A stretch of 64,000 nucleotides of DNA from Clostridia bacterium. GTDB taxonomy: Bacteria; Bacillota; Clostridia; Oscillospirales; RGIG5299. A model generated the notes under the pieces. The model saw only the letters and a program-made list of their open reading frames with translations. It ran no database searches and was not told where the DNA came from. Made by a program: the position numbers and the translations under genes. Shown piece after piece: positions 1 through 30,433 of the stretch (its first letter is position 1; each line of letters starts with the position of its first letter). The stretch covers positions 6,373 through 70,372 of the forward strand of contig JAFVQJ010000014.1 of the NCBI GenBank assembly GCA_017504945.1. Direction: 5' to 3'.

Positions 1-185
1 AGTATCACGCCAGTTCTATTCGCCTGCGGCGAGTTCTATTGCTGCGCAGTGATATTCGGCTCGCGCCGAGTGGTATTCGCTTCGCGAGTTTGAAGGCGAA
101 TAGAATATCACTGAAGCCGCAAGGCTTCAATATCACTATTGCGATAGCAATAATATCACTCTTTGCGAGAGCAAAGAATATCACT
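1..185. repeat. Linker/hairpin array 1 (truncated by window start)
   Basis: ATATCACT occurs at 105-112, 130-137, 153-160 and 178-185 (+). Its reverse-complement form occurs as AGTGATAT 48-55, AGTGGTAT 69-76 and degenerate AGTTCTAT 12-19 and 32-39. Between linkers are short hairpins with unrelated stems: 112-129 (7 bp, loop GCAA), 137-152 (6 bp, GATA), 160-177 (7 bp, GAGA), 56-69 (5 bp, TCGC), 77-87 and 20-32. A central palindrome lies at 75-101. Confidence 0.8.
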
Positions 186-242
186 AAAAAACAGAGAAGA
201 GAGAGTTTCACGGAATTTTGTAACCGTGTTACTCTCTCTTCT
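186..242 (-). terminator. Intrinsic terminator of the minus-strand isomerase/URO-D operon
   Basis: A 12-bp stem (195-206 with 231-242) encloses an inner 5-bp stem (209-213 with 224-228). On the minus strand it is followed by T6 (A-run 186-191 on plus). Confidence 0.7.
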
Positions 243-350
243 ACTTTTATTGCCAGTTTCTCATTTGTATAACAAACGCATCGGGCTATGCCCATACCCT
301 TATTTTATTTCTCCGATAAGGACATCACCCAATAGGCAGAGCCGTTTTTA

Positions 351-1199
351 TCATTTTGAGGTAATTTGGTGAGCAATATCGACCATGCTTTTCAAATACG
401 CCTTGAATATCGGCAAAGGCGCGTTTCGCGGCGGCGCCGCCTCGTAGTTAAACGGGCAGGATAATTCAAGCTCCGAATAGACCTTGCCGAGAGATATCCA
501 GTCAAGCCTTCCGAAGCAGGGCATAAGGTGGTTATCGCCGTGTCCGTCGTTATCGTGAAGATGAAGCGCGCGAATAAGAGCGCCGTGCTTTTTCATCTCA
601 TTTGCGACCGTAAGCTCGGGAAAGACGTTTGCGTGGCCCGCATCGAAGCACATTTTGCAAAAATCGCTGTTTATTTCGCGAATAAGCTCACACACCTTGT
701 CGGGCTTGGCAAGCGAAAAGGAGGGAAAGGGCAGATTTTCAAGGCAAAGCGTTACTCCCTCTTGCTCGGCGGCGATTGCAAGCTCACGCATAAAAACGGT
801 ATTCAATGCTTTTGTTTCAGCTTCCTTGTGCTTTTCAATATCGTCTGTACCGAAGGGCATTATTGGGTGAATTACCATGCATTTTGCTCCGAGCACCCTT
901 GTTCCCTTCAGGGCAAGCTTCATTTTTTCCATGCGCTCGGCGCGCGCCTCCTCGGTGGAGTCGTCGATGGGAATACGCCACGGACCGTGCGTTTGATATA
1001 TCTCAACACCGTGCCTCTTTGCTATCTCGTGCTCAAGCGAAAGCCTTTTTAAAAAATCCTCCTCACAGAGAGAGTAAAGCTCGTCGTTGGTATTGGAAAT
1101 GGTGAAATCGAATGCCGAAATGCCGCATTCCTCAAGTGCTTTATATTTATCCTCTCCCTCAAGGCAGGTAATTCCCCTTGAAACGACAGATACCTTCAT
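351..1199 (-). CDS. Sugar phosphate isomerase/epimerase (xylose isomerase-like TIM barrel)
   Basis: ORF 351..1235 trimmed to ATG 1199 (MKVSVV), which has a purine-rich RBS. HGPW, MVIHP, LCLENL, DAGHAN and HLHDNDG motifs are typical of the AP endonuclease 2/xylose isomerase-like family. Confidence 0.75.
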   Translation of the reverse strand: MKVSVVSRGITCLEGEDKYKALEECGISAFDFTISNTNDELYSLCEEDFLKRLSLEHEIAKRHGVEIYQTHGPWRIPIDDSTEEARAERMEKMKLALKGTRVLGAKCMVIHPIMPFGTDDIEKHKEAETKALNTVFMRELAIAAEQEGVTLCLENLPFPSFSLAKPDKVCELIREINSDFCKMCFDAGHANVFPELTVANEMKKHGALIRALHLHDNDGHGDNHLMPCFGRLDWISLGKVYSELELSCPFNYEAAPPRNAPLPIFKAYLKSMVDIAHQITSK

Positions 1200-4752: not shown

Positions 4753-7700
4753 TTATTCGTTGGTACCGTAGACGTTATTGCCTATCAGGCCGCTCGGATT
4801 TCCGAGATGAGCGTAAAGAGAATTGTCGGTTCCTGCGCCGTTAAAGCGGTTCTGGCAGATCATGATTCCGCTCGAGTTGCCGCCGTTCATACCGTAGCCG
4901 CAGCCCTGGAATACATTGCCTATGAATTTCGCATCGTTAAGGTCGATAAAGTCGATACCTGCGAAGCTGCAACCCTTTATGAGATTGGCGTGAACGAAGG
5001 TCGCCGATCTTGCGGCCAGACCGTTTCTGCTGAGACCTATGCCGGTGGGGAAGCCGATTATCTGGTTGTTGCTTACCGTTTCTCTGCCGGTCGAGCGCTG
5101 AAGATTTATACCGTAGACCGTTTTTGCGGTAGAGGTGCCGGTGTAGGTGATAATGTTGCTATCGATTCTTGAGTCGTAGCAGTCTATGAAATAGATGCCG
5201 CAGCCCGTTCCGACCGAGTTGAAGTTGCAGTTTGTAACGAAGGTGGTCTGGTTTTTGGTAACGAAAACACTTGCATAGGTCATTCTCAGAGTGGTACAGT
5301 TATCTATCTGAATACCGTTTGCAACGCCGTTTGTCTCAAGCTGATCGCAATGGACGAAGGTCGCAGAGTCTGCCGCATTGCAGTTTCTTATAAAGATGAA
5401 CATTGAATATGCGCCTACGTCGATACATCTGTTTACGTTGTTGAATTCGAGGTTATCGAAGCAGCAACCGCCCGCGTAGTCGAAGAAGATAGCGGTGTTA
5501 AGGTTGCTGAAGCTGCAGTTGAATACGTCAACGCGGCTTACGCCGTTGTGTATTCCGTTGTAAACGATGGCGTTGCAGGCACCGCCCGTAATGCCCTCGA
5601 AGCTTATGTTGTCGAAGCGAGCAAAGTAGGATGAGCCGGATCTGTCACCGCCGATAACGGTGGGATCGGTGCAGGTAACTATTTTGAATGCCGTTGTGTT
5701 TACACCTATTTTTATCACTGAAGTCTTATCCTCGGAATGACCGAAAACGGAAAGGTGATTGGAAACGGTTATATCGGAATTTACGTTGTAAACGCCCTCG
5801 GAAAGCAAAACGGGAATTCCGAAATAGGTTGCGGTCTTAATAGCGCTTGCGTCGCAAACGTTATCGTTTACCTTCGCGCCGAACCACTCGGGTCTTATAA
5901 AGGCAAGGTTTGCAAAATTGGTGGTGTTTGCGGTAACGTTTAAGTAAAGGACCTGATTGGTGCCCTGCGTTATAATATCCTTACAGTTGAATACGGGGGT
6001 GGTGCCGTAGAGACAGTAGAGCGACGAGGCCTCGTCAAACATAAGAGTTACGTTTGCGGGGAAGGTGACAGCTCCGTTAAGTCCGTAATAGCCACCCTTG
6101 AAATAGAAGATGTAGTCCTTGCTTGAATCGAGAGAGTTTATAAAGGAATTGAGATTCGTTACGTTGGAGGCTGCGTAGCTTCCTGCCGCTGCAGCCGAAT
6201 CGGCGGGAGTGAGCACCGTTGACATATCAATATAGTCGCTCGATGCCGTTTCACTCATAGTGGGAAGTGAAATTACGTCTGCGGGAGTGGCTGAAGAAAG
6301 ACGCTGAACATAGTTTACGCTTCTGTTTAAGGTGTTGGTGTAAATTATCTCGTCGTCCTCGTCAGAGTCGGTCTCACCCTCGTAGATGATATAGCCTACC
6401 GCGGTAAAGTTTCTCGAAAGCTTATCGCTCGGAATATCGGTAAGAACCGCGGTAAACTGGAGGAAGGCGGGATCGTTGACGTAATATTTTTCAGCAACGA
6501 TGCGAAGATAAGATCTTCCGTTTATCTTTCCGCTCTCGGTTATTTTAAGGCCGGAGGTGTCGGGAAGAAGATCGGTAGGCATTATAAGAGCGCCCGCCTC
6601 TTTAATGGTGTTGTATTTTTCATTTTTGATAAGGTTTACGAGGAAGCGAAGCCCCTGCTTTTGCTCTGCGGAGTGTGAACGGAACTGTGCGCCCACGATA
6701 AAGCCTGCGCGCTCGGCGGTATCCTTCTCTGCGGAGAATGCGGCGGCGTCAAAGCCGTTTATCTTTGAAACGGTTGCCTTCGAGCCTGCGGCAACGGTGC
6801 TCATACCCGCAAAGGTGAGGTATGCCTTACCGTTTTCGTCAACGACGGCGGAAAGGTCGAATTCCGCTACGGCTCCGTTATGTGAATAGGAGAGAGCAAC
6901 GTTGTTGAGCTTAACGGTGTATTTGCCGTTTTCGTTCTTTGTGAATTTTAACTCGCAGGTTGAGTTTTCAAGAACCTTATTTTCAAACAAAAGCTCGGAG
7001 ATGCAAGCGGAAACAACGTCGAGATAAGGGTTGTTTCCTCTGAAGGTAATTGCAAGGGTGGAGTTCTTATCTGAGTTGGGACCGTGGTTTCCGCCGATAA
7101 CGGAGGCGGTAAATGCGGTGGGCTTGGTATTCGAAAGGAAAATTCCGAAATAGCTTGCGTTGGCAACCGATGCCTTTGATGCTCTGAAGCTCAGCGTAAG
7201 ACCGTCAACGGTTACCTTGTCGGAAAGTGAGGTGCCCGCCATGGGAGTGGTGCCCTTGGAGAAATCAAACGATATCTCCTTGCCGTTGTTGGTAACGATA
7301 CCCTGATTGTCGGCATTTGAGGGAGTAAGAGAATCCACATCGATGGTCTTTACAAAGCCGTCAAAGGTTGAGAAGGGAACGCCGTTTACCTTCTTAACGG
7401 TCATATCGTAGGTTCTGTCGTTTCCGTAGGAGTCGGATGCAAAGGAGAGATAGCTGCTGCCGCTTGAGAAAATTGCGGCTGCGCCGCTCATGGTGTTGAG
7501 AAGAGTCTTGGAGCCGCCCGCCTTGGTATAGTAGACCGAAACGTCGCTTCCCGAGATCTCAAAAGAGAAGGTGACCTCGTCGGCGGGAGAGAAGGTAACA
7601 CCTGAAACGTAGGTGTTGTTAGAGGTCGAAACGCCGTTTGCGGAGGTGTAAACGACTATTTTACCGGCATCTGCGCCGGTTTTGCACATAAAGAATTTAA

Positions 7701-14440: not shown

Positions 14441-14850
14441 TTTCTTGCCCGAGGGGTGAGGTGAGTGACGCAATACATTGTGTTTTGCAGAGTGTTCCTT
14501 TCGCCTTCACACCTTCGCAGGCGCAAAGCGCCAAGAGGTGTGCGAGTGAAAGGGGATTTTTGCTTTTCTTACTCTCACGAACCGAGGGGAAGCTCCCCCT
14601 CAATAAAGGATTTTCTTTTCCTGTTTCTTGTATCCTTACAAGAAACAGGCGCCCTGCGCGCAGCGGGAAAAAGGTGCCCTTTGCGGCTCGAGCGGCAAAG
14701 CCCCACGCGTAGTGGAAAAAAGGAGACCTTCGCGGCTTGAGCGGTAAAGCCCCGCGCGCAGCGGGAAAAAGGAGCCCCGCGGCTTGAGCGGCAAAGCCCC
14801 ACGCGTAGCGGAGAGAAAAAAGGCGCTACGCGGTCTTTTACGGAAACAGA
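14441..14850 (+). repeat. Hairpin-packed element, copy B2 (direct orientation, internally deleted; three ~48-nt units)
   Basis: 14445-14475 matches 12650-12682 in direct orientation. Hairpins at 14584-14601 and 14620-14649. GCGGCTYGAGCGG at 14683, 14732 and 14779. Together with copy A it forms a ~750-bp imperfect palindrome. Confidence 0.65.
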
Positions 14851-29365: not shown

Positions 29366-29390
29366 AATATGCAAAATAAAATCCACCCTC

Positions 29391-29418
29391 TGCGTACCTG
29401 CCATAGAGCAGGTACGCA
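29391..29418 (+). other. 11-bp perfect hairpin at the operon 3' end (no T-tract)
   Basis: TGCGTACCTGC-CATAGA-GCAGGTACGCA. Confidence 0.6.
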
Positions 29419-29622
29419 ACGAAATTTGCCCTTTCGGGCAAGTGAAATCGCTTTGCGGTGAAATATTTGCTCCGCAAATGTGAAATGTCCGCTTGCGCGG
29501 ACGTGGGCAAATTTCATTTCACATCGAGCAAGGCGAGATATTTCACAATGTGCGGTAGCACATTATTTCACGTTTTGCGGAAGCAAAACATTTCACTATA
29601 TGCATTTGTGTCTTCAAATGCA
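29419..29622. repeat. Linker/hairpin array 2
   Basis: GTGAAAT at 29442, 29458 and 29480 (plus CGAAAT at 29420), then the reverse complement ATTTCAC at 29516, 29540, 29565 and 29590 (spacing 24/25/25). Hairpins: 29426-29441 (loop TTTC), 29465-29479, 29487-29502 (TTGC), 29547-29564 (GGTA), 29572-29589 (GGAA) and 29601-29622. Confidence 0.8.
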
Positions 29623-29697
29623 GTGCTTCGTATGTATTAACTAAAGGCTACAACAAAATTATTATCTGTTGACTAAACAAAAAAGTTAACACAAAAT

Positions 29698-29728
29698 GAG
29701 CCTTCTCCCACAGGAGAAGGCTTTTTTA
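29698..29728 (+). terminator. Intrinsic terminator (+ strand)
   Basis: GAGCCTTCTCC-CACA-GGAGAAGGCT followed by T6. Confidence 0.7.
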
Positions 29729-29792
29729 CATTCCGCGCTACATATAAAGAGGACAGAGAACGCAAAGCATCCTCTGTCCTCCTGTCGGTCGG

Positions 29793-29833
29793 TATAAAAA
29801 GGCACTTATGGCGGTTTTGTCATAAGTGCCTTT
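29793..29833 (-). terminator. Intrinsic terminator of the Cys-rich small ORF
   Basis: AAAGGCACTTATG/CATAAGTGCCTTT 13-bp stem followed by TTTTTA on the minus strand. Confidence 0.65.
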
Positions 29834-29845
29834 GCGTTGCTTTTG

Positions 29846-30049
29846 TCATAGTAAGGACTGGGGGATTTCTGTTTTGTTAATTGTTTTGCTTTTTGAATCA
29901 AATTCGGGGAAACAAAGCAAAAAGTAGTCGCATTCGTCGCAACAGCATTCAAATCCTTGCTCTCCGTTGCCAAGACAAACGGCAGGCTCTCCGGGCGTAA
30001 GTTCTACTCCGGTAATGTCTATGATCTTTTCTTGCATATTCTTGTTCAT
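29846..30049 (-). CDS. Small cysteine-rich protein (six Cys including a CCC-x2-C cluster), unknown function
   Basis: 67 aa. GGGGGG RBS 5 nt upstream. Own promoter, leader and terminator. Confidence 0.55.
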   Translation of the reverse strand: MNKNMQEKIIDITGVELTPGEPAVCLGNGEQGFECCCDECDYFLLCFPEFDSKSKTINKTEIPQSLL

Positions 30050-30070
30050 AGATTCCCCCCATCAGCATAT

Positions 30071-30229
30071 AAAAAAGTGCGCCCCAAAAGGGACGCACCG
30101 AAAAAATGCTTCCCCTTAGTTTGTTGTCACACAAATGCTCTCCCAACGAAGGTATGAGGAAAAGGAGAAAACACTTTTTACCAAAAGTATTTTCCCTTCG
30201 TTGGTTAGAATATATGCAATTTGTGTGAC
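30071..30229 (-). promoter_or_regulatory. Structured 5' leader: 104-nt rod hairpin plus intrinsic terminator (candidate riboswitch/attenuator or sRNA)
   Basis: P1 30126-30136/30219-30229 (11 bp), P2 30143-30152/30195-30204 (10 bp), P3 30167-30178/30183-30194. P3 contains a G-U pair on the minus-strand RNA that would be a C-A mismatch on plus. Terminator GGTGCGTCCC-TTTT-GGGGCGCAC followed by T6 at 30099-30071. Confidence 0.55.
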
Positions 30230-30235
30230 GAGTAT

Positions 30236-30264
30236 ATTTTACCACATCTCTGTCGGTTTGTCAA
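30236..30264 (-). promoter_or_regulatory. Consensus sigma-A promoter driving the leader
   Basis: On the minus strand: TTGACA (30264-30259), 17 nt, TGgTAAAAT extended -10 (30241-30236). The predicted TSS falls at the base of P1. Confidence 0.6.
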
Positions 30265-30322
30265 TAAAGCTTGAGGATTTGACAAAACTTTGGTGTCTTT
30301 AATTAAATCAGTGCTTGTCAAG

Positions 30323-30356
30323 AAAAAAAGACGAGGAATTTTTGCAATTCTTCGTC
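30323..30356 (-). terminator. Intrinsic terminator of the marR-ABC operon
   Basis: GACGAAGAATT/AATTCCTCGTC stem (one mismatch) followed by T7 on the minus strand. Confidence 0.6.
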
Positions 30357-30433
30357 CTTTTCCTGTTGGTAGGTATTTTGATTTTTATACTGCTCTATCG
30401 CAGATCCCCCTCGGGGGTGGATTTATTTTTTGT

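Follow-up and report, generated by a model that had tools for sequence, protein, structure and literature searches.

The 64-kb stretch of Clostridia DNA analyzed here, called the window throughout and supplying all coordinates, opens with an array of variable mini-hairpins joined by a conserved linker (array 1) and contains a second array of the same kind near its middle (array 2); labels of the form Lnnn denote the public contigs or loci with which they were compared. Sequence comparison places array 1 among the copies of Gut-1, a noncoding, modular, multicopy repeat of ~200–240 bp in gut Clostridia. Gut-1 was described by Weinberg et al. (2010) from 43 representatives in human gut metagenomes as probably an RNA of unknown function (PMC2864571); it is marked “RNA? 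Y” in that work and filed as a small RNA (sRNA) in Rfam. What was already known is the family. What is new is the recognition of array 1 as a subthreshold member, the polar anatomy in which a head enclosed by a long-range helix (P1) is followed by a tail, a rule of attachment to 3′ ends and tRNAs, and mobility. “Head” denotes the left half, on the side of an outer hairpin, and “tail” the right half, reading the + strand of array 1.

All four halves of the two arrays match Gut-1. In a permissive scan against Rfam RF01706, array 1 gave 42.2 bits at 100–186 (−) and 41.7 bits at 11–81 (+), with E-values for the whole window of 6.7e-5 and 8.7e-5, respectively; both scores lie under the gathering score of 50 bits. 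The left half of array 2 exceeds that score (69.3 bits at 29417–29491, +), and its right half gave 41.6 bits at 29511–29598 (−). The original prediction, made from the sequence alone, had found no described family to fit and had named a clear hit to one as grounds for giving up that view; the matches of both halves of array 1 to RF01706 are, in part, such a hit. Compared by eye, the seed rows BAAZ01000095 and BAAZ01025322 read ..GUUAUAUUCGCC..GUGAUAU..CAGUUUGACCGGCGAAUAUAAUAUCAC.. where the window reads CAGTTCTATTCGCC..GTGATAT..GAGTTTGAAGGCGAATAGAATATCAC, and the seed flanks (PMC2864571, supplementary file 95) carry the same start GUUAUAUUCGCC, the same center CAGUUUGACCGGCGAAUAUAAUAUCAC, and a mirrored AUAUCAC half. 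The feature by which RF01706 is described, at least three tandem hairpins with A-U and U·G closing pairs and GAA or GAU between them, is present in array 1 according to cmscan, RNA folds, and pair counts. The likeness to published Gut-1 (RF01706, PMC2864571) thus extends from the tandem variable hairpins joined by GUGAAAU or GUGAUAU to the start (CAGUUNUAUUCGCC or CAAYGAAAU) and center (GGCGAAUA.AAUAUCAC) seen in the seed flanks, the source in gut Clostridia metagenomes, and the stop codon and terminator before and reversed stop after. There are also differences. The Rfam model covers three head hairpins only (its plus-strand match in array 1, 11–81, is the head part of the element) and lacks P1, the tail, and the outer hairpin; the 43 described members came from human gut only, whereas the family is now found in metagenome-assembled genomes (MAGs) from ruminant, pig, chicken, and human gut; and it is filed as an sRNA, whereas the present data suggest a dispersed DNA element.

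The spread of the family was surveyed by a scan for GTGAWAT-N9-18-GTGAWAT-N9-18-GTGAWAT in one genome per species, which returned at least 119 loci. Among the matches listed, most come from gut MAGs (human, ruminants, pig, and chicken), and the loci are labeled Clostridia, Oscillospiraceae, Acutalibacteraceae, Ruminococcus, Christensenellaceae, Eubacteriales, and Roseburia. Self-complementary inserts were present in 87 of 127 linker clusters among the matches listed, and the rest, from other phyla, had none and serve as a built-in chance control. GTGAWAT copies are followed by ATWTCAC copies almost always among these matches, and the reverse order is almost never seen. The same three-linker pattern gave no mirrored pairs in viral contigs, plasmid records yielded no match, and an origin from phage or plasmid was rejected on these grounds; the sole match in a phage collection is partial and falls in an unverified fecal scaffold, on which a complete variant element lies beside an ordinary gene. 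A CRISPR array was likewise rejected (the conserved unit is 7–9 bp, the spacers are palindromic, the orientation flips, and no Rfam CRISPR model matched at threshold), as were plasmid iterons or centromere repeats (the spacing varies between 16 and 25 bp, the context is chromosomal and multicopy, and plasmid records hold no match).

Direct inspection of array 1 bore out the coordinates, linkers, stems, and loops first reported for it. The 9-mer AATATCACT is exact at 104, 129, 152, and 177 (+) and at 48 (−), with a one-mismatch copy at 69 (−); about 0.5 exact copies are expected on both strands of 64 kb and 6 were observed, 5 of them inside 140 bp. AGTTCTAT is present at 12 and 32, together with every stem and loop that had been listed. 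The left-hand units, AGTTCTAT, AGTTCTAT, AGTGATAT, and AGTGGTAT, are each followed by a short GC-rich hairpin, while the right-hand hairpins (TGAAGCC/GGCTTCA, TATTGC/GCAATA, and TCTTTGC/GCAAAGA) have the loops GCAA, GATA, and GAGA; the G..A loops on the outward strand that had been proposed are seen in both halves. The region is noncoding, as had been argued: the overlapping open reading frames (ORFs) 5..295, 39..272, and 163..372 are repeat artifacts, and the period is not a multiple of 3. A simple tandem repeat was also rejected, because Tandem Repeats Finder returns only fragments, with a period of 20 or 25 and 73–80% matches. The shuffle control suggested in the original prediction separates the halves. 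The right half (102–186) has a folding-energy z of −5.3 to −5.6, and 0 of 200 dinucleotide shuffles were as good, whichever strand was folded and whether the parameters were those for DNA or for RNA, whereas the energy of the left half (11–86) is not significant against shuffles (z = −0.25 to −2.2). The hairpins of the left half are taken as real on the basis of conservation and paired changes in relatives, not energy. The parts of the two arrays are as follows, where R1 is a covariance model of the head made in this analysis.

1..11 (+), outer hairpin, 3′ arm AGTATCACGCC; its 5′ arm GGCGTGATACT and loop CTTAACGG lie just before the window start (from L001 and L002).
10..111 (+), head module of four short GC-rich hairpins with linkers GTTCTAT, GTTCTAT, GTGATAT, and GTGGTAT; 118.2 bits with R1.
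15..24 (+), 5′ arm of P1, TCTATTCGCC, which is also the 5′ arm of hairpin h1 (RNAalifold, pair counts).
19..33 (+), hairpin h1, TTCGCC-TGC-GGCGAG (sequence; paired change TTGCC/GGCAA in L080).
38..50 (+), hairpin h2, AT-TGC-TGC-GCA-GT (sequence, pair counts; A4 columns 55/89 are UA 45, CG 16, GC 6, and AU 3).
54..71 (+), hairpin h3, AT-TCGGC-TCGC-GCCGA-GT (sequence, RNAalifold, pair counts).
75..88 (+), hairpin h4, AT-TCGC-TTC-GCGA-G; relatives swap TCGC/GCGA for TTGC/GCAA, GCCC/GGGC, or GGGC/GCCC.
95..104 (+), center, the 3′ arm of P1, GGCGAATAGA; invariant core GGCGAATA.A in dispersed copies, and the same center in the 2010 seed.
105..185 (+), tail module, four ATATCAC(T) at 105, 130, 153, and 178, with hairpins at 112–129, 137–152, and 160–177.
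193..246 (−), terminator of the AP_endonuc_2 operon, a long hairpin followed by a T-run just beyond the tail; conserved with the right flank in L129, L131, and L132.
29391..29628 (+), second element (array 2), with linker GTGAAAT/ATTTCAC; matched by Rfam Gut-1 and, with 52.7 bits, by R1.
29392–29417, outer hairpin of array 2; 29416–29522, its head; 29421–29430 with 29506–29515, its P1; 29516–29596, its tail; 29601–29620, its distal hairpin.

The layout of array 2 is the same as that of array 1 apart from its linker, and the relatives show that it is a general one. In the alignment termed A2, made of 13 GTGATAT-type elements, and in further loci inspected, the order is fixed: outer hairpin, start, head, center, and tail. 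The outer hairpin has 10–12 bp of variable sequence, often in the form A6-stem-T6, and is followed by CAGTTNTAT or CAAYGAAAT. The head holds three to four short GC-rich hairpins with partly degenerate linkers of the form GT..TAT, the center is GGCGAATANA or an equivalent, and the tail consists of three to four longer hairpins, each after a well-kept ATWTCAC, and ends in ATWTCACT. In array 1 the tail hairpins number three, with stems of 6–7 bp, and paired changes in relatives support this tail. Its outer hairpin is a perfect 11-bp stem, GGCGTGATACT-CTTAACGG-AGTATCACGCC, which in L127–L134 is either retained or replaced in its position by another perfect hairpin; a terminator scan counts it among terminator-like hairpins, 14 pairs long and trailed by GTTCTATTCG.

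This anatomy revises the first description in several respects. The array does run off the window start, as had been noted, but by only ~20 bases, which are the 5′ arm and loop of the 11-bp outer hairpin as seen in L001. The central palindrome proposed at 75–101 is specific to array 1 and is not kept in relatives, in which the conserved pairing is instead that of 15–24 with 95–104. Nor are the halves the mirror-like equivalents that they had been taken to be: the head has short GC-rich stems with degenerate GTNNTAT linkers, and the tail has longer stems with a well-kept ATATCAC. The stem sequences do vary, as had been stressed, but they are not free-form, and identical hairpin modules recur at other loci. 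The claim that pairing ability is kept while stem sequence changes is upheld by the 13 relatives, in which 14 of 41 pairs are changed on both sides.

The conserved pairing just mentioned, P1, was predicted by RNAalifold from the 13 elements as a 10-bp long-range helix that encloses the head (TCTATTCGCC at 15–24 with GGCGAATAGA at 95–104). At its single variable position the 13 elements have CG five times, AU five times, UA twice, and GU once, and the pair is never broken. P1 and hairpin h1 share a 5′ arm and therefore compete. Helices equivalent to P1 but very different in sequence were recognized by eye in array 2 (GAAATTTGCC/GGCAAATTTC), in L111 (GAAATTCGCC/GGCGAATTTC), in L057 and L016 (GAAATAAATCC/GGATTTATTTC), in L033 (AAATTCGTTCC/GGAACGAATTT), and in L260 (AAATTAATCC/GGATTAATTT).

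Pair counts support the structure as a whole. For A2, with a structure of 41 pairs set by hand (P1, h2–h4, t1, and t2) and 500 shuffles, 96.4% of cells are paired compared with 86.0 ± 0.9% in the shuffled alignments, none of which (0/500) reaches the observed value; the 14 doubly changed pairs compare with 7.8 ± 1.6 after shuffling, and when the partner is slid by one to three columns only 29–47% of cells pair. The R1 model has 74 matches in 99 sources, GTGAAAT-type heads included. In the alignment of 73 of these sequences, 96.4% of cells are paired versus 72.6 ± 0.6% when shuffled, the covariation score is 0.529 versus 0.140, and all 10 P1 pairs change on both sides; this alignment is fitted to the model, which favors pairing, and the slid controls, which keep the relatedness, are far lower at 31–50%. 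Paired changes keep the stems perfect palindromes across relatives. As a separate observation, L133 carries a perfect 17-nt palindrome, ACACAAT-TGC-ATTGTGT, in the hairpin 2 loop of a copy that is otherwise conserved (A1 columns 166–182), and a new palindrome within an old loop shows a route by which hairpins can arise; we count it among the hints of a process at the level of DNA.

The position of the element relative to genes follows a rule. Beyond the outer hairpin of array 1, as seen in L001 and L002, lies a gene of 109 codons (109-aa product) transcribed toward the element, and on the tail side lies the terminator of a minus-strand operon for an AP_endonuc_2 (sugar phosphate isomerase-like) protein; array 1 therefore stands between convergent transcription units. 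Array 2 likewise lies between convergent units, and so do the seed members, whose annotation gives a stop codon on the near side and a reversed stop on the far side. When ARAGORN was run on 60 loci and the results were compared with the R1 head positions and tallied by hand, a nearby tRNA was upstream of the head and codirectional with it in 16 of 16 cases. The gap between tRNA and head is 29–62 nt, mostly 33–37 nt, and is filled by ..CCA-GAAAAAA-hairpin-TTTTTT-CA..; in three more cases a tRNA 200–380 nt away is also codirectional. Because tRNA genes make up well under 1% of such genomes, both the association and its polarity are strong. The window itself contains no tRNA genes, and both of its heads follow a codirectional protein gene. 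The tail side is not always convergent, for a codirectional gene follows it in L027, L260, and L057. The element joins the 3′ end of a transcription unit by its head, which directly follows a hairpin or terminator and points the way the unit does; the tail often faces a convergent gene. In the two unrelated loci L027 (223–420) and L260 (366–480) the gene after the tail looks, by eye, like a four-helix-bundle gene of the 23S rRNA intervening-sequence type, which may be a coincidence.

Several lines of evidence bear on copy number and mobility. There are two elements in 64 kb, and depth ratios suggest ~12–16 copies of given modules in one sample: in run X9, of unrecorded type, fragments of array 1 of 31–44 nt (95–137) have a depth of 85–113 where the flanking gene has 7.3, and fragment 29511–29545 has a depth of 118.6 compared with 7–10. 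When metagenomes were searched with a single tail unit, eight contigs came back: four have the right flank of the window, and of these two differ in the left flank; the remaining four are in unrelated contexts. The break falls exactly at the outer hairpin base. Copies of the array 1 type stand in other flanks in L128, L130, L133, and L134, and pairs of near-identical copies, separated by a few kilobases, occur in both L057 and L111. L125, whose flanking gene is 99% identical, is without array 1 and has a DUF218 gene region instead. At the array 2 locus, L138 (GCA_965319465.1) has the same two genes with only an intact bidirectional terminator, AAAATAAAATCCACCC-TCG-GGGGTGGATTTATTTTTT, between them, and the ~1 kb of the window that includes array 2 (29391–30410) occupies the loop of an L138-type terminator hairpin, between CCCTC repeats; this segment is composite. 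Set against a MITE, which has terminal inverted repeats, a target-site duplication, and empty sites in relatives, the segment missing from L138 lies between CCCTC copies but is composite, and the L125 difference at array 1 is a replacement with no clean duplication. Copies of 29388–29628 at ≥99% identity have at least five different left flanks of the form “A-tract plus GC arm,” and the finding of further copies behind flanks of this form suggests insertion into terminator loops. Other copies match only from 29417 on, behind intact terminators, which indicates that the array proper and the outer hairpin are separable modules. The flanking 282-aa protein allowed no orthologue comparison, since the identity of its homologues falls from 99% to 55% with none between.

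The loci compared also show features that lie beside the elements. L125 (3869–4943) and L001 (10869–11218) have the same flanking genes, with a DUF218 gene and unrelated hairpins in the former and array 1 with its hairpins in the latter; the breakpoints are just after the AP_endonuc_2 stop codon and at the base of the outer hairpin. In the comparison of 29386–30412 with L138 (1228–1262), both ends of the segment carry a hairpin of the CTGC-(C/G)ATAGA-GCAG type. Next to array 2 is a 688-bp insertion (29629–30316) with an 8-bp direct repeat, CAGTGCTT, at 29621–29628 and 30309–30316, imperfect terminal inverted repeats TTAAYTAAAGRC, a 98-aa ORF at 29949..30245 (−) that has no Pfam match, and a strong promoter-like site, TTGACA-17-TAAAAT with TG, at 30264–30236 (−); a pig-gut metatranscriptome contig has the array 2 element without this insertion. 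A mini-hairpin module, GCATTTGTG..CAAATGCAGTGCTT, occurs at 29601–29628, at 4835–4860 of L125, and in the left flank of the L129 element, which are unrelated intergenic sites in the same species group, and it looks like another dispersed mini-repeat. In L111 (4294–5183) two near-identical elements, each with its own terminator, surround a short ORF that appears leucine-rich-repeat-like by eye; the first copy follows a tRNA-Ala, a tRNA-like 3′ fragment, gggttcgaatccc, lies ~60 nt past the second, and the layout is island-like. An intergenic, GC-rich 49-nt tandem repeat at 14657–14812 (3.2 copies, 82% matches) is unlike the Gut-1 arrays and has no Rfam match.

Whether the element acts as DNA or as RNA is addressed in part by its variable stems. 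In 198 distinct hairpins flanked by exact linkers, 1151 of 1173 pairs are Watson–Crick (98%), with 6 G·T, 9 A·C, and 7 other, and by these counts the stems are essentially perfect palindromes with no excess of wobble pairs on either strand; small G·U excesses are seen in the model-fitted alignments, as against 6 G·U versus 9 A·C in the unbiased count. The lack of wobble fits selection on both strands or mutational copying of one arm from the other and is atypical of selected RNA helices. The loops are mostly triloops (106) and tetraloops (73), and in the Rfam orientation, T..C, the common ones are TTC (35), TGC (23), TTGC (11), TTT (10), TAC (9), TTAC (8), and TAAC (7). On the outward strand they read GNA or GNNA with the middle base free, and the triloops are mostly GNA with a C-G closing pair; mini-hairpins of the form d(C-GNA-G) are unusually stable as DNA. 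We lean toward an element that acts at the DNA level over an RNA sponge, given the missing surplus of G·U pairs, the mobility, and the place behind terminators.

The reading that we favor, at what we would call an even chance, is that Gut-1 is a nonautonomous dispersed DNA element similar to REP/BIME/REPIN or BOX repeats, possibly serving also as a two-way backup terminator. Such an element would be spread by transposition or recombination without autonomy, the heptamer beside each hairpin would be the recognition site of the acting protein, probably on extruded or single-stranded DNA, and the perfection of the stems would be maintained in the DNA itself, as template switching inside palindromes could do. 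A two-way role as backup terminator or insulator is probable and would make the element tolerable at 3′ ends; it is proposed because each half gives an incoming RNA polymerase RNA hairpins of 9–10 bp followed by AUAUU. In a lenient terminator scan, the outer hairpin and two of the tail hairpins come up as terminator-like when read in the incoming direction, and backup termination is on that account likely a side effect; an intrinsic terminator has a U-tract directly behind its GC-rich hairpin, and the tails here, AUAUUCUAUU or GUUCUAUUCG, contain no U run. A bolder version, which we put forward as a tentative possibility, is that Gut-1 represents a hitherto unrecognized, structure-maintained mobile class in Clostridia that homes, in fixed orientation, to sites 3′ of terminator hairpins, above all downstream of tRNA operons, and that would be moved by a putative protein reading heptamer plus mini-hairpin in single-stranded DNA; it would be a Firmicutes counterpart of REPIN–RAYT that consists of different hairpins in ordered arrays and brings its own two-way terminators.

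A number of observations weigh against a mobile DNA element. Array 1 shows no clean target-site duplication or empty site, L125 being a complex replacement, and the ~1-kb insertion at array 2 may itself be some larger element, distinct from Gut-1, in which a Gut-1 array happens to lie. No partner gene (transposase, recombinase, or other) was found near the few copies checked, and the ORFs between paired copies in L021 and L057 are housekeeping genes (phosphoenolpyruvate carboxykinase, NAD synthase, a phosphatase, and a methyltransferase). The hairpins are without proper U-tracts, which makes terminator activity speculative. That several families of Clostridia keep the same architecture is as compatible with a host function or an RNA as with a selfish element. 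Three further points favor RNA: the head stems on the head-to-tail strand have invariant, linker-supplied A-U and U·G closing pairs in 13 of 13 elements; P1 in A2 has 4 G·U and no other non-Watson–Crick pair among 130 cells; and the RNA fold of the head-to-tail strand is more stable by 3–11 kcal/mol.

These last points are central to the foremost alternative, a structured noncoding RNA of the class described by Weinberg et al., which we regard as doubtful though worth serious attention. The head-to-tail strand would be transcribed by read-through of the gene or tRNA operon ahead of it or from an unrecognized promoter to give a P1-closed multihairpin head and a GNRA-capped tail, which might bind protein through the repeated single-stranded GAA/GAU or AUAUCAC sites or serve as a 3′ trailer for processing or stability. 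The Rfam class and its “RNA? Y” entry (PMC2864571), the strong covariation, P1 included, and the strict co-orientation with the upstream tRNA or gene all agree with a transcript, and the closing pairs and P1 G·U pairs, the better fold, and the GNRA-like tail loops occur on this one strand. The head loops, however, are U..C on that strand, which is no known stable RNA loop, and the 6 G·U against 9 A·C in the variable stems are unusual for a selected RNA helix. The element lies after intrinsic-terminator-like hairpins, and no sigma-70-like promoter was predicted in or beside either array. Fragments of the arrays do occur at high depth in metatranscriptome contigs, although the RNA-labeled runs are assembled contigs without strand information, and the excess depth is at least partly, and more simply, explained by copy number, since it is also found in run X9, which covers the flanking gene evenly at 7.3×. 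Finally, the copies behave like mobile DNA.

It is unlikely that the element arose where it stands, between transcription units, as an immobile two-way backup terminator or insulator. On this view polymerases that get past the primary terminator would run into successive hairpins whose U-rich tails are weak. The view draws on the location behind terminators, between convergent units, and downstream of strongly transcribed tRNA operons, on the fact that each half meets the incoming polymerase in its longest-stem orientation, and on the two tail hairpins and the outer hairpin flagged as terminator-like. Near-identical copies at unrelated loci and presence or absence between strains, however, call for spread, which evolution on the spot does not provide; AUAUU and AAAU make poor U-tracts, P1 and the strictly conserved heptamer are left unexplained, and the tail faces a codirectional gene in L027, L260, and L057. 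Less credible again is a double-stranded DNA binding array (iteron, centromere, or roadblock/replication barrier) with the heptamers as sites and the palindromes as spacers. A strictly conserved 7- to 9-mer repeated three to four times in each of two opposed orientations would suit such an array, and the heptamer may resemble ribbon-helix-helix heptads (WATCACW) and ParB/Noc half-sites (GTGAAAC, GGGAAAT). The irregular heptamer spacing of 16–25 bp, however, puts the sites out of helical phase, the spacers are constrained to pair and have strand-specific loops, neither of which a spacer in duplex DNA needs, and there are many copies per genome, with nothing matching in plasmid records. Low-complexity sequence arising by chance, or a meaningless local tandem duplication, for which one could cite only that the left half alone folds no better than shuffles, is refuted by the 74 covariance-model matches elsewhere, the conserved architecture, and the compensatory changes, and pattern matches from other taxa in the same scan are hairpin-free and the viral scan is without the paired mirror layout.

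Gut-1 has stood in Rfam since 2010 as an orphan “sRNA” without an assigned function, and the new facts make its nature testable: what was modeled is just the head, the whole element being larger and polar; this head is enclosed by a P1 that covaries; the element is strictly attached to the 3′ ends of transcription units, those of tRNA operons above all; and it is multicopy and polymorphic between strains. If the favored reading of a mobile DNA element is true, Gut-1 would provide a marker of strain-level variation in abundant uncultured gut Clostridia and a supply of terminators ready for use; as an RNA it would be a widespread tRNA-linked transcript.

Among known systems, the ends of Tn7, Mu, and Tn402 have several transposase sites in opposed orientation and give 5-bp duplications, and Tn7 inserts after glmS in fixed orientation. 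Gut-1 similarly has three to four short opposed sites, unequal ends, and a fixed orientation beside a conserved gene, and its array 2 insertion shows a direct repeat of 5 bp. It differs in that its site is 7–9 bp with palindromic, variable spacers, the termini of the GTGATAT subfamily break the TG..CA rule, no transposase is known for it, and the 5-bp repeat at array 2 bounds a larger, composite segment. BOX of Streptococcus pneumoniae is built as boxA-boxB(n)-boxC, and ERIC, Correia, and RUP are other structured intergenic repeats. Like BOX, Gut-1 is modular, polar, intergenic, structured, and dispersed, with a variable number of internal units, whereas there is no sequence similarity and the Gut-1 units are 16–25 bp and consist of a heptamer and a mini-hairpin; we know of no description of a strict attachment of BOX to terminators and tRNA 3′ ends.

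The third comparison is with REP/BIME/REPIN repeats and their RAYT proteins (Bertels and Rainey 2011, PMC3116915; PMC3337134), with which Gut-1 shares short extragenic palindromes and a conserved short motif beside the stem. Both consist of opposed units, are multicopy and nonautonomous, lie at 3′ ends and between convergent genes, and probably act as hairpins. A single REP palindrome recurs tens to hundreds of times in a genome; the corresponding figures for Gut-1 are the two elements in 64 kb and the ~12–16 copies of given modules suggested by depth in one sample. Gut-1, however, is an ordered, polar array of different hairpins and not one repeated palindrome, and its head and tail, in contrast to the halves of a REPIN, share the heptamer only and differ in their stems. 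Because the halves are not mutually complementary, no long hairpin of the REPIN type can form; the only long-range inverted repeat in the element is the 10-bp P1, around the head alone. No RAYT, the single-copy Y1 HUH transposase that REP repeats flank, was found among the genes near the few copies checked. The hosts differ as well, being Firmicutes for Gut-1 and Proteobacteria for the REP/RAYT system.

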